A DNA stretch of 4,397 nucleotides. Origin: a virus. Taxonomy: Duplodnaviria > Heunggongvirae > Uroviricota > Caudoviricetes. Under the pieces are notes generated by a model that saw only the letters and a program-made list of their open reading frames with translations, did no database searches and was not told the origin of the DNA. The stretch lies in the IMG/VR virus record IMGVR_UViG_2548876698_000016; one strand, written 5' to 3'. The position numbers were made by a program, and so were the translations under genes. Shown piece after piece: positions 1 through 4,397 of this stretch. Numbering within the stretch: position 1 is the stretch's first letter; each line of letters starts with the position of its first letter.

Positions 1-258
1 GAGAAATACACACGCTGGGTAAAGACACAGCCGTGTGCGTGTTGTGGTAAGCCAGCGGACGATCCTCATCATCTGATTGGTCATGGTCAGGGTGGAATGG
101 GAACAAAATCCCACGATATTTTCACGCTACCGCTGTGTCGGGAGCATCACAACGAGCTTCATGCGGATCCGCTGGCGTTCGAAGAAAAGCATGGTTCCCA
201 GGTTGATTTAATTTTTCGTTTTCTTGATCACGCTTTTGCAACCGGCGTGCTCGGGTAA
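1..258 (+). CDS. Prophage DUF968-like (YdfU-like) protein, C-terminal fragment with Cys/His-rich zinc-binding-like motif; 5' end lies outside the window
   Basis: Frame 1 is open from the window edge to TAA at 256-258. Translation reads ...PCACCGKPADDPHHLIGHGQGGMGTKSHDIFTLPLCREHHNELHADPLAFEEKHG...; the CxCC...HH...C..HH pattern and the position immediately upstream of rusA match the DUF968 family as I recall it from lambdoid prophages. Family assignment is from memory, not a search. Confidence 0.55.
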   Translation, partial: EKYTRWVKTQPCACCGKPADDPHHLIGHGQGGMGTKSHDIFTLPLCREHHNELHADPLAFEEKHGSQVDLIFRFLDHAFATGVLG

Positions 259-270
259 AAGAGGTTACTG

Positions 271-642
271 ATGCGTATAGAGTTTGTTTTGCCTTACCCG
301 CCGACGGTGAACACCTACTGGCGACGTCGTGGCAGCACATATTTTGTATCAAAAGCCGGTGAGCGTTATCGCCGGGCTGTGGCGCTTATTGTTCGCCAGC
401 AGCGGCTGAAATTAAGCCTGTCCGGACGGCTGGCAATAAAAATTATTGCAGAACCACCGGATAAGCGCCGCCGTGACCTGGACAACATTCTGAAAGCACC
501 GCTGGATGCGCTGACGCATGCGGAAGTGCTCATTGATGACGAGCAGTTTGATGAAATCAATATTGTGCGCGGTCAGCCTGTGCCAGGTGGACGGCTGGGC
601 GTGAAGATTTACGAAATCAGAGGTGGTAACGATGGCGCGTGA
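271..642 (+). CDS. rusA: Holliday junction resolvase RusA (crossover junction endodeoxyribonuclease RusA family)
   Basis: ATG at 271 preceded by AAGAGG (259-264). The 123-aa product has the size and the RRRDLDN acidic motif typical of RusA ([11 protein letters not shown]...[29 protein letters not shown]...[11 protein letters not shown]). It is similar but not identical to my recollection of E. coli K-12 RusA. Its position between a nin-region gene and Q is typical. Confidence 0.85.
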
Positions 643-1003
643 TATCCAGATGGTTCTTGAGCGATGGGGGGCATGGGCAGCAAATAATCATGAAGATGTA
701 ACATGGCCCTCGATAGCTGCTGGTTTTAAAGGATTAATCCCGACTAAAGTGAAATCACGTCCTCAGTGTTCTGATGATGACGCCATGATAATTTGTGGTT
801 GTATGGCACGATTAAACAAGAATAATCAGTATTTGCACGATTTGTTGGTGGATTATTACGTAGGTGGAATGACATTTATGGCTCTTGCACGTAAGCATAG
901 ATGTTCTGATGGGCTTATTGGTAAAAGGCTTTATAAAGCGGAAGGTATTATTGAAGGAATGCTTATGGCTCTGAATGTCCGGTTAGATATGGATATGCGG
1001 TAG
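632..1003 (+). CDS. Late-gene antitermination protein Q (small Phage_antitermQ family, QuuD-like)
   Basis: The ORF is open from GTG 623, but the likely start is ATG 632 ([23 protein letters not shown]...), with a GAGGTGG Shine-Dalgarno at about 620-627. It overlaps the rusA stop (640-642) by 11 nt, suggesting translational coupling. The ~124-aa, Cys-containing product resembles the small Q antiterminators of DLP12-like prophages and sits directly downstream of rusA. Stop is TAG 1001-1003. Confidence 0.75.
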
Positions 1004-1094
1004 GGATATATAGTGATGAGGGTTATGTTTTCTGTGTTTATAATTAACATGTTTATTTTTTGATGGTCATGTATTGTGGAAGGTAGATAAAATG

Positions 1095-1123
1095 TTGCCT
1101 GGTGAATTGAAAATATTGATAAT
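1095..1123 (+). promoter_or_regulatory. Candidate sigma70 promoter in the Q-downstream intergenic region (TTGCCT -17- GATAAT); possible late promoter or cargo promoter
   Basis: -35-like TTGCCT at 1095-1100, a 17-nt spacer, and -10-like GATAAT at 1118-1123, about 30 nt upstream of the CPBP start. A perfect TATAAT also occurs at 1039-1044 but has no good -35. Prediction is from sequence only. Confidence 0.3.
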
Positions 1124-1154
1124 CAATCTTCATCATTAAATAAAAGGAGTGCTT

Positions 1155-1973
1155 ATGTGGATTGTGTTAGTACTGTCACTGTCAACTCTCAGTTGGCATA
1201 AGGTAGTGGCTTTTTCATTGTTGACGGTGTCTGTTGTCCTGGCTGTGCTTAATGATATTATTGATTGGTCGGTGTTATTTTTTGTTGCTACAATCGTTTT
1301 TTTTATTATTTTGAAGTTCAACTGGAAATATAACGCCTGGGCTAAATCTATATATGAAGTTGGCATAGTTTTATCAGCCATAGCATTATTTTTCCATCTA
1401 TGGCCAGGGTTTCACAATCCTGTAGTGCTAAATTCTGTTACTGTTGGCCCTCAAAGTACTCCCTATACAATGTATTTTAATTTTGATAAAGCGCTGGTGC
1501 CATTTTTGTTAGTCCTGTGTACATCTTCTTTGTTTAAAAAAGAAGTAAAATCAGAAGTGTCTTTGTGGAAGTGGGGGGCTCTGTCGCTCTCTGTTCCTCT
1601 TATCCTGTTTTTGGCTGTTTTTTTTGGTGGATTAAAGCCAGAGATTCATTTTCCTGAGTGGTTGCCAGAGTTTATATTGGCTAATTTGTTTTTTGTGTCT
1701 CTGGCAGAGGAATCATTATTTAGAGGGTATATTCAATCACGGCTATCAGAAGTAACGTCTCCATTGGTTGCATTAATTGTGGCGGCTTTGTTGTTTGGTT
1801 TTTATCACTATTCAGGTGGTGCTTTACTTGTATTATTTGCCACGTTATCTGGTGTTGTGTATGGATTGTCATGGATGTGGAGTGGGCGTTTGTGGGTTGC
1901 CACCCTTTTCCATTTTGGTTTGAATCTGTGTCACTTGTTATTCTTTACCTATCCATTTTTAAAACATAATTGA
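1155..1973 (+). CDS. CPBP family intramembrane glutamic metalloprotease (CAAX protease / Abi-domain, PF02517-like), polytopic membrane protein
   Basis: ATG 1155 preceded by AAGGAG (1144-1149); the ORF track starts at in-frame GTG 1149. The 272-aa product is very hydrophobic with about 8 predicted TM segments. All three CPBP catalytic motifs are present in order: EExxxR (AEESLFRGY), FxxxH (FGFYHY) and HxxxN (HFGLNL). The gene is T-rich and clearly lower in GC than rusA/Q. Stop is TGA 1971-1973. Confidence 0.8.
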   Translation: MWIVLVLSLSTLSWHKVVAFSLLTVSVVLAVLNDIIDWSVLFFVATIVFFIILKFNWKYNAWAKSIYEVGIVLSAIALFFHLWPGFHNPVVLNSVTVGPQSTPYTMYFNFDKALVPFLLVLCTSSLFKKEVKSEVSLWKWGALSLSVPLILFLAVFFGGLKPEIHFPEWLPEFILANLFFVSLAEESLFRGYIQSRLSEVTSPLVALIVAALLFGFYHYSGGALLVLFATLSGVVYGLSWMWSGRLWVATLFHFGLNLCHLLFFTYPFLKHN

Positions 1974-2113
1974 TTTTTTCTATGGTTTTAAATTTATAAG
2001 ACTGAAAAATAGCAGGACGTGACATTTGCATGAAAAATATGCACGGCAAAGCATTTACGTACGTAAAAAATCAGGTATGCTGTTAAGAGTGGTTATTTCG
2101 CCGCATAGCTTGA

Positions 2114-2136
2114 CCCCGCCTCTGAGCGGGTTTTTT
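2114..2136 (+). terminator. Putative rho-independent terminator downstream of the CPBP gene
   Basis: GC stem CCCGC (2115-2119) / GCGGG (2126-2130) with a 6-nt loop, followed by TTTTTT (2131-2136). The stem is short (5 bp), so strength is uncertain. Confidence 0.45.
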
Positions 2137-2259
2137 GTGCCCGCAAAGTAGCGCAGTGCGTTAAATGTGCTGGTAGTTATTAATACAGGTCTTTCAGCTT
2201 GCTGGCTTTTTCGACAAGAGTTATTGGTGTGTCACGTTAACCGGAAAGGGTAAAAAGAC

Positions 2260-2499
2260 ATGCTGAAACAGCAGGATATGACAGAAACCGCCAGAGTTGT
2301 GTTTGATGAATTAAGCGTCACCGAACCGGCGACGGTCGGGGAGATTGCGCAGAATACGTACCTTTCACGCGAGCGCTGCCAGTTAATACTGACCCAGCTG
2401 GTTATGCGGGTCTGGCAGACTATCAGTTCGGTTGTTACAGACGCCTTCAGTCCTGAAGGCTTTTTTATTTGTGGTAAATGGGCGGCTGGTGGGTGTTAG
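2260..2499 (+). CDS. Hypothetical small protein (79 aa) with a possible helix-turn-helix segment; coding status uncertain
   Basis: ATG 2260 follows a purine-rich stretch (GGAAAGGG, 2243-2250); an alternative ATG is at 2278. The segment ATVGEIAQNTYLSRERCQLILTQL looks HTH-like. GC is higher than the flanking AT-rich spacers. Caveat: a canonical terminator hairpin plus T-run (2443-2466) lies inside the last 19 codons, so the true 3' end or the coding status is in doubt. Confidence 0.4.
   Translation: MLKQQDMTETARVVFDELSVTEPATVGEIAQNTYLSRERCQLILTQLVMRVWQTISSVVTDAFSPEGFFICGKWAAGGC
2443..2466 (+). terminator. Canonical intrinsic terminator (7-bp stem, 4-nt loop, T6) located inside the 3' end of the 79-aa ORF
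   Basis: GCCTTCA (2443-2449) pairs perfectly with TGAAGGC (2454-2460) around loop GTCC, followed by TTTTTT (2461-2466) and ATTT. Confidence 0.5.
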
Positions 2500-2527
2500 C
2501 GGCACCTGTCAGTCCTTTGCTTATGTG

Positions 2528-2558
2528 TTGATGATAATTTACCTTTTGGGGCTATAAT
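2528..2558 (+). promoter_or_regulatory. Candidate sigma70 promoter for the AraC-family gene
   Basis: Perfect -10 TATAAT at 2553-2558 with -35-like TTGATG at 2528-2533. The spacer is 19 nt, which is longer than optimal. It lies about 35 nt upstream of ATG 2594 in an AT-rich spacer. Confidence 0.3.
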
Positions 2559-2593
2559 TGAGCTAACCAATTGCTAATGAAAGTAAAATTATA

Positions 2594-3307
2594 ATGGCTG
2601 TTGTCTGTTCAGTTATCATGGTTTGCTCCCCAATTAATATTTTTCTTGAAAAGGATACGTTGTCACTTAAGCCCGGCTCAGTCGTTCTGGCCACCAAATG
2701 CATCAGGGCGCTTTTCCTTATGCATTATGGCAAAGTTAAAATTTTCGATATAAACCATTCCATAGTAAGTCAATATCTGGAAATTCAGCATAAGCTGACA
2801 AGAACTCATCTGACTGACGTTCCGCTTTATCTGTCACTGGAACCCAACAACCCTGCGTTGGCTGAGGCTTTAATTACCAGCCAGAGATTTTCCGGAGATA
2901 CCACGGATATGTTTCTTATGATGGCATGCCTGTCGCTGTTTGAATCAGATGAACGGATATTATTATTTTTAAGTGGATGTTTATCCAGTATAAGTGCCAA
3001 AGTCAGGGCGATAATTCAGACAGATATATCAGCAAGCTGGACGCTTGGTGCGATTGCGTTACGCCTGCATATGAGTGAGAGTTTGTTAAAGATAAAACTG
3101 AAAAATGAAGGGCACATGTTCAGTCGCTTGTTGCTGGAAGAGCGGATGCGTGTTGCTGTCAATATGTTATGTTCCCGGCATGGATATGGACAGGCTGTAG
3201 CAGAAAAATGCGGTTATTCAAGCTGGTCCTACTTTATTTCTGTATTTCACCGCTATTATGGCTTCCCGCCAGACAGATATGTATCCAGGCAAGGGCTTGA
3301 TTATTGA
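2594..3307 (+). CDS. AraC/XylS-family transcriptional regulator, YdeO/AppY/GadX-like subgroup (prophage-encoded)
   Basis: The 237-aa product has a C-terminal AraC-type double HTH (WTLGAIALRLHMSESLLKIKLKNEGHMFSRLLLEERMRVAVNML...AEKCGYSSWSYFISVFHRYYGFPP). The N-terminus MAVVCSVI... resembles the M-x-x-VCSV start I recall for YdeO and AppY, which supports ATG 2594 as the start despite a weak Shine-Dalgarno. The gene is AT-rich. Stop is TGA 3305-3307. Confidence 0.8.
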   Translation: MAVVCSVIMVCSPINIFLEKDTLSLKPGSVVLATKCIRALFLMHYGKVKIFDINHSIVSQYLEIQHKLTRTHLTDVPLYLSLEPNNPALAEALITSQRFSGDTTDMFLMMACLSLFESDERILLFLSGCLSSISAKVRAIIQTDISASWTLGAIALRLHMSESLLKIKLKNEGHMFSRLLLEERMRVAVNMLCSRHGYGQAVAEKCGYSSWSYFISVFHRYYGFPPDRYVSRQGLDY

Positions 3308-3335
3308 TTTTCATCTGATTATTATTTTTTGGCTC

Positions 3336-3411
3336 GGCCCTTTAGCTCAGTGGTGAGAGCGAGCGACTCATAATCGCCAGGTCGCTGGTTCAAATCCAGC
3401 AAGGGCCACCA
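3336..3411 (+). tRNA. tRNA-Ile2 (anticodon CAU, lysidine type; ileX/ileZ-like)
   Basis: A 76-nt cloverleaf folds cleanly: acceptor GGCCCTT/AAGGGCC, D-arm GCTC...GAGC, anticodon loop CTCATAA (CAT at 3369-3371), T-arm GCTGG-TTCAAAT-CCAGC, discriminator A and encoded CCA. It is near-identical in architecture to E. coli ileX as I recall it, including the C4:G69 and C5:G68 pairs used by TilS, so Ile2 is favoured over Met. Confidence 0.88.
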
Positions 3412-3418
3412 TCACATA

Positions 3419-3495
3419 CCGCCATTAGCTCAGCCGGACAGAGCAATTGCCTTCTAAGCAATCGGTCACTGGTTCGAATCCAGTACAACGCGCCA
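3419..3495 (+). tRNA. tRNA-Arg (anticodon UCU)-like gene; acceptor stem anomalous, possibly a degenerate or pseudo-tRNA
   Basis: D-arm (TA-GCTC-AGCCGGACA-GAGC), anticodon arm (ATTGC-CTTCTAA-GCAAT, TCT at 3453-3455), 5-nt variable loop, T-arm (ACTGG-TTCGAAT-CCAGT) and 3' GCCA are all canonical. However, the presumed 5' acceptor strand (CCGCCAT, 3419-3425) is not complementary to the 3' strand (ACAACGC, 3485-3491) in my hand fold, so the boundaries and functionality are uncertain. Confidence 0.6.
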
Positions 3496-3509
3496 CACTT
3501 ATTTTCCCT

Positions 3510-3535
3510 GGCTCGCTTTTGCGGGCCTTTTTTTT
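3510..3535 (+). terminator. Strong rho-independent terminator following the tRNA genes
   Basis: 7-bp stem GGCTCGC (3510-3516) / GCGGGCC (3521-3527) with one G-U pair and loop TTTT, followed by eight T residues (3528-3535). Confidence 0.7.
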
Positions 3536-3732
3536 AAATGTCTCACAATTCAGGCGGTTGACTGTTGTCTGGTTTGCGGGGAGTTTGTTAAAAGAAACTG
3601 GCATGGTGAATCCCCCTGTGCGGAGGGGCAATCAGCGAGTAGGTATATGGGATAATCGCGGATTCAGGTGCTGGTACTGAATTCACCGGGAGGCACCCGG
3701 CACCATGCAATGGCACATAGCGCCACTCTCCA

Positions 3733-3756
3733 GCCCCTCTCCGGAGGGGCTTTCTT
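3733..3756 (+). terminator. Terminator-like hairpin (plus-strand orientation) in the tRNA-to-nanS intergenic region
   Basis: 7-bp stem GCCCCTC (3733-3739) / GAGGGGC (3744-3750) with loop TCCG, followed by TTTCTT (3751-3756). The U-tract is imperfect. Confidence 0.45.
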
Positions 3757-3762
3757 ATGGAC

Positions 3763-3791
3763 AAAAAAAGCCCGCGCAGGGAGACGCGGGC
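3763..3791 (-). terminator. Intrinsic terminator oriented for leftward (minus-strand) transcription
   Basis: 7-bp stem GCCCGCG (3770-3776) / CGCGGGC (3785-3791) with an 8-nt loop. On the + strand it is preceded by AAAAAAA (3763-3769), which is a U7 tract after the hairpin on the minus strand. Confidence 0.45.
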
Positions 3792-3984
3792 GGCAAGGAA
3801 TAAACAACAAAACGTGAAGTAATATTTCAGCTGGCGAATAATATCCGACAGTAATCACTCTGCGCAATAGCGCGGCCTTTTTCGTATTGCGGGCTGTTGT
3901 CTCTCTTCTGCCATTGTCCTGTAACTTCCGGACTTCAGCCCGCTCCTCATTTTACTCACAATATTATCCCGGCCGGGAGGATTC

Positions 3985-4397
3985 ATGGCATTTAAACACT
4001 ATGATGTTGTCAGGGCGGCGTCGCCGTCAGACCTTGCGGAAAAGCTGACACACAAACTGAAAGAGGGCTGGCAGCCATACGGCGGACCGGTTGCCATTAC
4101 GCCGTACACACTGATGCAGGCGGTGGCTATTGAAGGAGATCCACAGGTCGGCCCTTCATCTAAGCCGGACTGGTTCTACGTGGTTGTGCTTGCCGGACAG
4201 TCCAACGGCATGGCCTACGGTGAAGGGCTTCCGTTACCGGATTCTTACGATGCTCCGGATCCGCGCATTAAACAGCTGGCGCGCCGCAGCACGGTAACTC
4301 CGGGTGGAGAGAGTTGTACGTATAACGACATCATTCCGGCTGACCACTGCCTGCATGATGTGCAGGATATGAGTACGCTGAATCATCCGAGGGCTGA
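3985..4397 (+). CDS. Prophage sialate O-acetylesterase NanS-p-like protein (DUF1737 N-terminal domain + SGNH/SASA esterase), 5' portion; continues beyond the window
   Basis: ATG 3985 preceded by GGGAGG (3973-3978). The frame is open to the window end (137 codons). Translation MAFKHYDVVRAASPSDLAEKLTHKLKEGWQPYGGPVAI... matches the DUF1737-type N-terminus, and FYVVVLAGQSNGMAYGEG carries the GQSN block of SASA-type esterases. GC is high and E. coli-like. The placement upstream of lysis genes is as recalled for lambdoid and Stx prophages. Confidence 0.8.
   Translation, partial: MAFKHYDVVRAASPSDLAEKLTHKLKEGWQPYGGPVAITPYTLMQAVAIEGDPQVGPSSKPDWFYVVVLAGQSNGMAYGEGLPLPDSYDAPDPRIKQLARRSTVTPGGESCTYNDIIPADHCLHDVQDMSTLNHPRA

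Follow-up and report, generated by a model that had tools for sequence, protein, structure and literature searches.

A predicted CPBP-type intramembrane protease gene as optional cargo between the antiterminator gene Q and the inferred late promoter of lambdoid prophages

The stretch of DNA analysed here, IMG/VR record IMGVR_UViG_2548876698_000016, matches a lambdoid prophage present in hundreds of Escherichia coli O157:H7 genomes with 99.7-100 % identity; its equivalent in strain Sakai is prophage Sp4. All positions given below refer to this stretch of 4397 bases, i.e. the window. Our subject is the gene at 1155-1973, which encodes a CPBP (Rce1-like) intramembrane protease and directly follows the antiterminator gene Q, a position at which related prophages carry other genes or none at all. 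Neither the gene nor its assignment to the family is new: it is annotated in Sakai as 'phage CAAX amino terminal protease family protein', and the published primers of Jandu et al. 2009 (PMC2654852), who studied the same gene, match the window exactly. The window contains the following genes:

1-258, + strand, 3' end of a DUF968 gene
271-642, + strand, rusA
623-1003, + strand, antiterminator Q gene of the Q21 type (PF06530; relative of phage 21 Q, PDB 6P18, E=7e-8)
1155-1973, + strand, CPBP protease gene
2260-2499, + strand, open reading frame (ORF) of 79 amino acids (ECs1086; phrog_331 match, TrmB-like)
2594-3307, + strand, AraC-like regulator gene psrA (ecs1087)
3336-3411, + strand, tRNA-Ile2 (CAU anticodon)
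3419-3495, + strand, defective tRNA-Arg
3572-3762, + strand, small RNA (sRNA) STnc100 (Rfam RF02076, full length, 138 bits against a gathering score of 47)
3985 onward, + strand, start of a DUF1737/NanS-type esterase gene

The protease ORF runs on the + strand from the ATG at 1155 to 1973, i.e. 272 amino acids plus the stop codon, and AAGGAG at 1144-1149 precedes the ATG with a spacer of five bases. An alternative GTG start at 1149, two codons further 5', is also open; the RefSeq start is 1155. A first-pass annotation, made from the sequence alone, had described a polytopic CPBP protein with three intact catalytic motifs, located in a prophage and with no bacteriocin gene beside it, and this description held throughout. 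The prophage is a lambdoid one of the Sp4 type, the annotation of the window contains no bacteriocin gene next to the protease, and Pfam PF02517 (Rce1-like) covers residues 171-260 with an E-value of 1.4e-19 and 70.6 bits against a cut-off of 22.4, a margin that excludes a chance match. The conserved parts of the protein are encoded as follows:

1395-1511, + strand, residues 81-119, family-specific conserved loop H..PGFHN..G..S..MYFNFDKA..PF, outside the Pfam domain
1707-1724, + strand, residues 185-190, motif 1, EESLFR (EExxxR; catalytic Glu)
1794-1808, + strand, residues 214-218, motif 2, FGFYH (FxxxH)
1911-1925, + strand, residues 253-257, motif 3, HFGLN (HxxxN/D)

E185, E186, R190, F214, H218 and H253 do not vary in an alignment of 113 homologues, in which N257 is conserved to at least 90 %; within the loop, G85, N88, N109, D111, K112 and F117 are invariant as well, and their neighbours nearly so. 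An AlphaFold2 model built from this alignment (mean predicted local distance difference test score 94.8, predicted template modelling score 0.91) and the hydropathy profile both give a polytopic protein of about eight to nine hydrophobic helices, with a helical fold like that of Rce1 and SpdC, and the model folds the loop into short strands and helices. A profile search of the PDB sequences with the protease returned no match, the link to SpdC and Rce1 coming from fold comparison only, while a fold search of BFVD retrieved only remote CAAX proteases of giant viruses and of Bacillus phage G. Membership of the myxosortase/CTERM-sorting families was not found with the NCBIfam models (best score 46 bits against a cut-off of 435), and the NCBIfam Mrt models scored 19-33 bits against cut-offs of 75-325. 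Taken together, sequence and fold point to a probably catalytically competent CPBP/Rce1-type glutamic intramembrane endopeptidase.

Among phage sequences, the family was found in prophages only (IMG/VR, PHROG 13291), and a tblastn search of 50,697 GenBank phage records with the protease gave no match. Prophage carriers include O157:H7, O111, O103 and O121 as well as Escherichia albertii and Shigella, and among the contexts inspected there was no non-prophage copy in E. coli. The prophage copies are under purifying selection, with ratios of non-synonymous to synonymous substitution rates (dN/dS) of 0.12-0.30 between alleles, and of the 41 IMG/VR copies 39 are intact and retain the three motifs. 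One further IMG/VR locus (L143, 47 % identity) was rejected as a prophage copy; its gene follows the tail genes at the prophage edge and is probably host DNA.

Full-length chromosomal homologues of 45-55 % identity occur as single genes in many Enterobacterales and rarely in Helicobacter and Pseudomonas. Their gene order is modE-modF-CPBP-gpmA-aroG-pnuC in Providencia, Photorhabdus and Xenorhabdus and modE-modF-x-CPBP-galT-galK-galM in Serratia and Yersinia, while the Enterobacter homologues occupy other chromosomal sites. Clustering of the neighbour genes at 80 chromosomal loci revealed no conserved functional partner, only housekeeping synteny (mod, gpmA, aroG, gal). The loop at residues 81-119 is common to phage and chromosomal members, which suggests a shared conserved bacterial substrate or ligand. 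As an aside, six Enterobacter loci (L007, L035, L039, L053, L056 and L063) carry the homologue flanked by an EAL-domain gene and an ABC importer, and in L007, the one locus with Pfam calls, a TonB-dependent receptor gene lies further 3'; this iron-transport-like neighbourhood may be coincidental.

The single-gene distribution in many Enterobacterales would also suit self-protection against a competitor's peptide toxin, bacteriocin or microcin, as provided by the Abi/CPBP immunity proteins, which belong to the same superfamily; the motifs are intact, and such protection would benefit the lysogen. Against this stands the finding that neither the 47 prophage loci nor the 80 chromosomal loci contain bacteriocin or peptide-toxin genes; export genes are likewise missing beside the copies examined, and no cognate toxin is known. 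We therefore consider toxin immunity rather improbable.

The position of the gene within the prophage is constant. Wherever upstream sequence was available, i.e. at 47 prophage or IMG/VR loci with alleles of 55-100 % identity, a Q gene directly precedes the protease gene; it is of the Q21 type in most of them and of the lambda type before the 55 % allele. On the 3' side of the protease gene the window contains two further features:

2054-2086, + strand, conserved element found by alignment, consisting of TTTACG (2054-2059), a 16-nt spacer, TATGCT (2076-2081) and then TAA
2115-2140, + strand, predicted intrinsic terminator CCCGCC-loop-GGCGGG with a T run, putatively tR'

The GC hairpin at 2115-2140 is common to phages of other Q types, whereas the element at 2054-2086 is not. 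Scanning IMG/VR for this element yielded 120 loci (L146-L265), of which 110 had enough upstream sequence; a Q21-type Q lies upstream in 101 of these 110, another Q type in none. Of all 120 elements, 115 are followed by a T run. We infer from this that the element comprises the late promoter pR' and the Q-utilisation region, which together with the terminator would lie 3' of the protease gene. The comparative pR' paper (PMC6266700) offers little useful detail on Q21-type Q. A short transcript predicted at about 2088-2140 could be an sRNA like those at other late promoters.

The interval between Q and the element thus forms a slot, the content of which differs among the 101 loci:

28 of 101 loci, empty, the element starting 28-63 nt after the Q stop codon
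56 of 101 loci, a Porin_1 gene (Lc/NmpC type) on the opposite strand
7 of 101 loci, an ORF6N gene
6 of 101 loci, the CPBP protease gene
2 of 101 loci, a DnaD_N-like gene
1 of 101 loci, an NsnB/PDC-M55-like ATPase pair
1 of 101 loci, a P22_AR_N antirepressor-type gene

The slot ORFs of loci L009 and L100 have no match in Pfam or PADLOC. The protease gene is, therefore, polymorphic for presence and absence and shows these features of a moron: 28 loci are empty, 67 hold alternative cargo, and the base composition deviates, with a GC content of 37.7 % in the protease gene and 28.5 % in its upstream region compared with 50-53 % in DUF968 and rusA.

The AT-rich region upstream of the protease gene contains several promoter-like sites (1064-1136, predicted from consensus-type matches), among them:

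1095-1136, + strand, predicted overlapping sigma-70-like promoters TTGCCT-17-GATAAT and TTGAAA-18-CATCAT
1112-1130, + strand, predicted Fur-box-like sequence AATATTGATAATCAATCTT, 14/19 to the consensus and overlapping the predicted -10 regions

The putative box is the best match to the Fur consensus in the window, its score being reached by 32 of 2000 intergenic shuffles, and a Fur-like box of 17/19, a score reached by none of 2000 shuffles, is found at the equivalent site upstream of the 55 % allele. According to Jandu et al., the protease transcript is present in the uninduced, broth-grown EDL933 lysogen and is induced with HEp-2 cells but not with T84 cells, and the array cluster that contains it includes exbB, chuU, chuW, entE and ter genes (PMC2654852). 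The Fur-like box is weakly consistent with this co-induction with Fur-regulon genes. The same study reports that after lambda-Red deletion of the gene the block of interferon-gamma (IFN-gamma)-induced STAT-1 phosphorylation was lost; complementation was no more than partial, as was the effect in HB101 (PMC2654852). While these authors considered a possibly released protease acting on host cells, sequence and model here indicate a polytopic inner-membrane enzyme, so that any STAT-1 effect must be indirect.

Position and expression bear on two further explanations. One is a role in the lytic cycle: the gene would be co-transcribed with Q as the last of the delayed-early operon, and the protease would time or assist lysis or toxin release by processing a phage or host membrane protein. 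In agreement with this, the gene always stands directly after Q as well as upstream of the lysis cassette or of stx, and it is co-directional with Q, with no terminator predicted between the two; moreover, a later study, reportedly by Ho et al. in 2012, connected the inhibition of STAT-1 with Shiga toxin, and release of this toxin depends on prophage lysis functions. However, the downstream holin and endolysin types vary between loci (holin 2_1, 3_1 and 8), which leaves the gene without a constant partner of phage origin; in sister phages that share the Q type, the slot is empty or occupied by a porin gene; chromosomal homologues exist without a phage; and the transcript was detected without induction. 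A lytic-cycle role thus seems quite improbable.

The other explanation is superinfection exclusion or anti-phage defence, i.e. a membrane protease, made in the lysogen, that by cutting a membrane target blocks the entry of DNA from incoming phages or triggers abortive infection. The use of the same slot by Lc/NmpC-type porin genes in 56 loci and by the NsnB/PDC-M55-like ATPase pair in one would fit such a function, as would the purifying selection on the prophage copies and the presence of the transcript in lysogens. Nevertheless, no defence-protein family of PADLOC-DB v2 matches the protease at E<=0.1, its PHROG family is without a known function, the homologues of about 50 % identity are single genes at housekeeping loci and not in defence islands, and no phage-resistance phenotype was found in the literature searched. 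We regard defence as unlikely.

A pairing with the neighbouring genes was also considered. The AraC-like neighbour is psrA (ecs1087, Sp4) (PMC13502914), named in a study on the sRNA HnrS that deals with Sp9, Sp10 and Sp12 and not with the protease locus. PsrA is a member of the PsrA/PsrB/PatE group, prophage regulators that act on the GAD system and on type III secretion. Genes of the psr type occur at 1325 places in 726 complete genomes, and the protease gene in about 572 of 5426 complete E. coli genomes. Conserved co-occurrence of the protease and PsrA was not found: psr genes stand without the protease behind other Q types (L100 and L101), and what comes after the protease alleles of 55-85 % identity is stx1A/B, the lysis genes immediately, or other genes, in no case Psr. 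Two side observations concern toxin genes. The 84-85 % alleles (L002-L004 and L136) lie between Q and stx1A/B in Stx1-type prophages, and in IMG/VR contig L109 the protease gene is followed by a small ORF, psrA and then a gene for a Stx2-like A subunit (54 % to Stx1A).

The 79-amino-acid ORF ECs1086 derives from a phage protein of 65 amino acids (phrog_331) by loss of 1 nt near nt 2405, which alters the C-terminal 30 amino acids, in agreement with the PGAP label 'frameshifted'. A hairpin at 2443-2460, normally located after the stop codon of the 65-amino-acid protein, now lies inside the extended ORF. The proposal of the first-pass annotation that this ORF encodes a regulator was therefore abandoned, the ORF being a frameshifted copy of a common phage protein, and its suggestion of a protease-regulator signalling pair fared no better. 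Such a pair, in which the protease would cleave or control PsrA or the 79-amino-acid protein, might be suggested by physical proximity, which exists in Sp4 only, and by the location of both in AT-rich foreign DNA that may share silencing. It is largely refuted by the distribution, co-occurrence with PsrA failing in both directions; in addition, the ORF is a remnant, between the protease gene and both neighbours lie the inferred late promoter and terminator, and no membrane segment was detected in PsrA, a soluble protein of the AraC type, all of which leaves the pairing scarcely credible. PsrA is independent cargo, and the 79-amino-acid ORF is not a specific partner of the protease.

Further downstream, the sRNA STnc100 has the tRNA genes on one side and the NanS-type esterase gene on the other. 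Compared with all matching O157 genomes, the window is about 70-90 nt shorter, with a junction near 3425-3444: positions 1-3444 and 3425-4397 map to reference positions 70 nt apart, with an overlap of 20 nt. The junction joins the 5' part of the tRNA-Arg gene argN with the 3' part of argO, and the fused tRNA receives no ARAGORN call and is recognized by Rfam as a truncated tRNA (model positions 7-64). The fusion reflects either recombination between both tRNA-Arg genes or assembly collapse.

The explanation we favour, with confidence and doubt in about equal measure, is that the protease gene is an independently expressed lysogenic-conversion gene, the product of which is an active inner-membrane CPBP protease acting on a conserved bacterial envelope substrate. 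The gene would be autonomous cargo of a Q21-type lambdoid prophage, captured from the chromosomal gene family that is widespread in Enterobacterales. Its expression would most likely start from its own AT-rich promoter during lysogeny, possibly under repression by Fur, and after induction would also result from read-through from Q. The endopeptidase would be inserted into the inner membrane of the lysogen and there cleave a bacterial protein or peptide associated with the membrane and conserved across Enterobacterales. Cleavage would thereby alter the host envelope or the set of secreted proteins, and would not concern the neighbouring regulators or a phage lysis protein.

Several points weigh against this explanation. 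Protease activity or a substrate has been reported neither for the protein nor for any member of the subfamily, and the intact motifs are in themselves no proof of a proteolytic role, because the closest solved structure, SpdC, is a non-catalytic scaffold. The promoter and the Fur box are predictions, and the pR' assignment derives from comparative position and not from mapped transcript ends. The case for Fur control in the window is weak, as around 5 % of control upstream regions also reach the 14/19 score and no enrichment of Fur boxes was found upstream of the chromosomal homologues; for the latter reason, Fur control is not a trait of the family. Finally, expression could instead be mainly early-lytic, since the gene is co-directional with Q. 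With regard to the first of these points, the protein might itself be a scaffold that, like SpdC of Staphylococcus aureus, binds and modulates another membrane protein, an enzyme or a sensor kinase, and does not act by proteolysis. This appears highly doubtful, as the catalytic residues are invariant in the 113 sequences, which is hard to explain without catalysis, whereas SpdC has lost them.

Coming back to a lysogenic-conversion gene acting through proteolysis, one may speculate that an iron-responsive, Fur-controlled protease cleaves a conserved bacterial envelope protein and thereby releases or matures a factor that damps the IFN-gamma/STAT-1 response of host cells, or protects the lysogen from incoming phages, although this more specific version is fairly improbable. 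CPBP proteases are abundant in bacteria, yet to our knowledge none has a defined substrate in a Gram-negative bacterium, and we found none in the literature searched. If either variant is true, a CPBP protease of Gram-negative bacteria or their phages would for the first time have a defined function and substrate. The enzyme is carried by prophages of major pathogens, sometimes beside stx1, and one published virulence-related phenotype of its deletion has never been explained. Our data give the search for a substrate a cleaner start, i.e. with a membrane and not a secreted enzyme that is independent of PsrA, has relatives on chromosomes and is encoded in the slot between Q and the inferred late promoter. 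Its practical value is modest as long as neither the STAT-1 nor a phage-resistance phenotype has been confirmed.

Among known systems, Rce1, a type II CAAX prenyl endopeptidase with a solved structure from M. maripaludis (4CAD), shares 17 % identity with the protease, which differs in its extra conserved loop (residues 81-119) and its variable N-terminal helices; the prenylated CAAX substrates of Rce1 are, as far as we know, absent in bacteria. SpdC/LyrA of S. aureus (6U0O, the SagB-SpdC complex) shares 13 % identity. It is a glucosaminidase partner, while the protease retains its catalytic residues and has no SagB-like gene nearby. The Abi/CPBP immunity proteins of lactic acid bacteria, such as PlnI, SkkI and similar proteins, confer an immunity that depends on the CPBP motifs, but their genes lie inside bacteriocin loci, where none of the prophage and chromosomal copies of the protease examined were found. 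The Lc porin of phage PA-2 and the NmpC porin of DLP12 are encoded in the same slot between a Q21-type Q gene and the inferred late promoter and are likewise optional envelope-protein cargo, although they are unrelated outer-membrane porins with genes on the opposite strand. By altering phage receptors, the Lc porin of PA-2 is a classical factor of lysogenic conversion; such a role is established for the Lc/NmpC porin and not for the protease. The chromosomal 'lysostaphin resistance A-like' CPBP genes of Enterobacterales, e.g. Providencia, Photorhabdus, Serratia and Enterobacter, have the same length, motifs and loop but are found at housekeeping loci (modF-gpmA or modF-galT), whereas the protease described here is carried by prophages.
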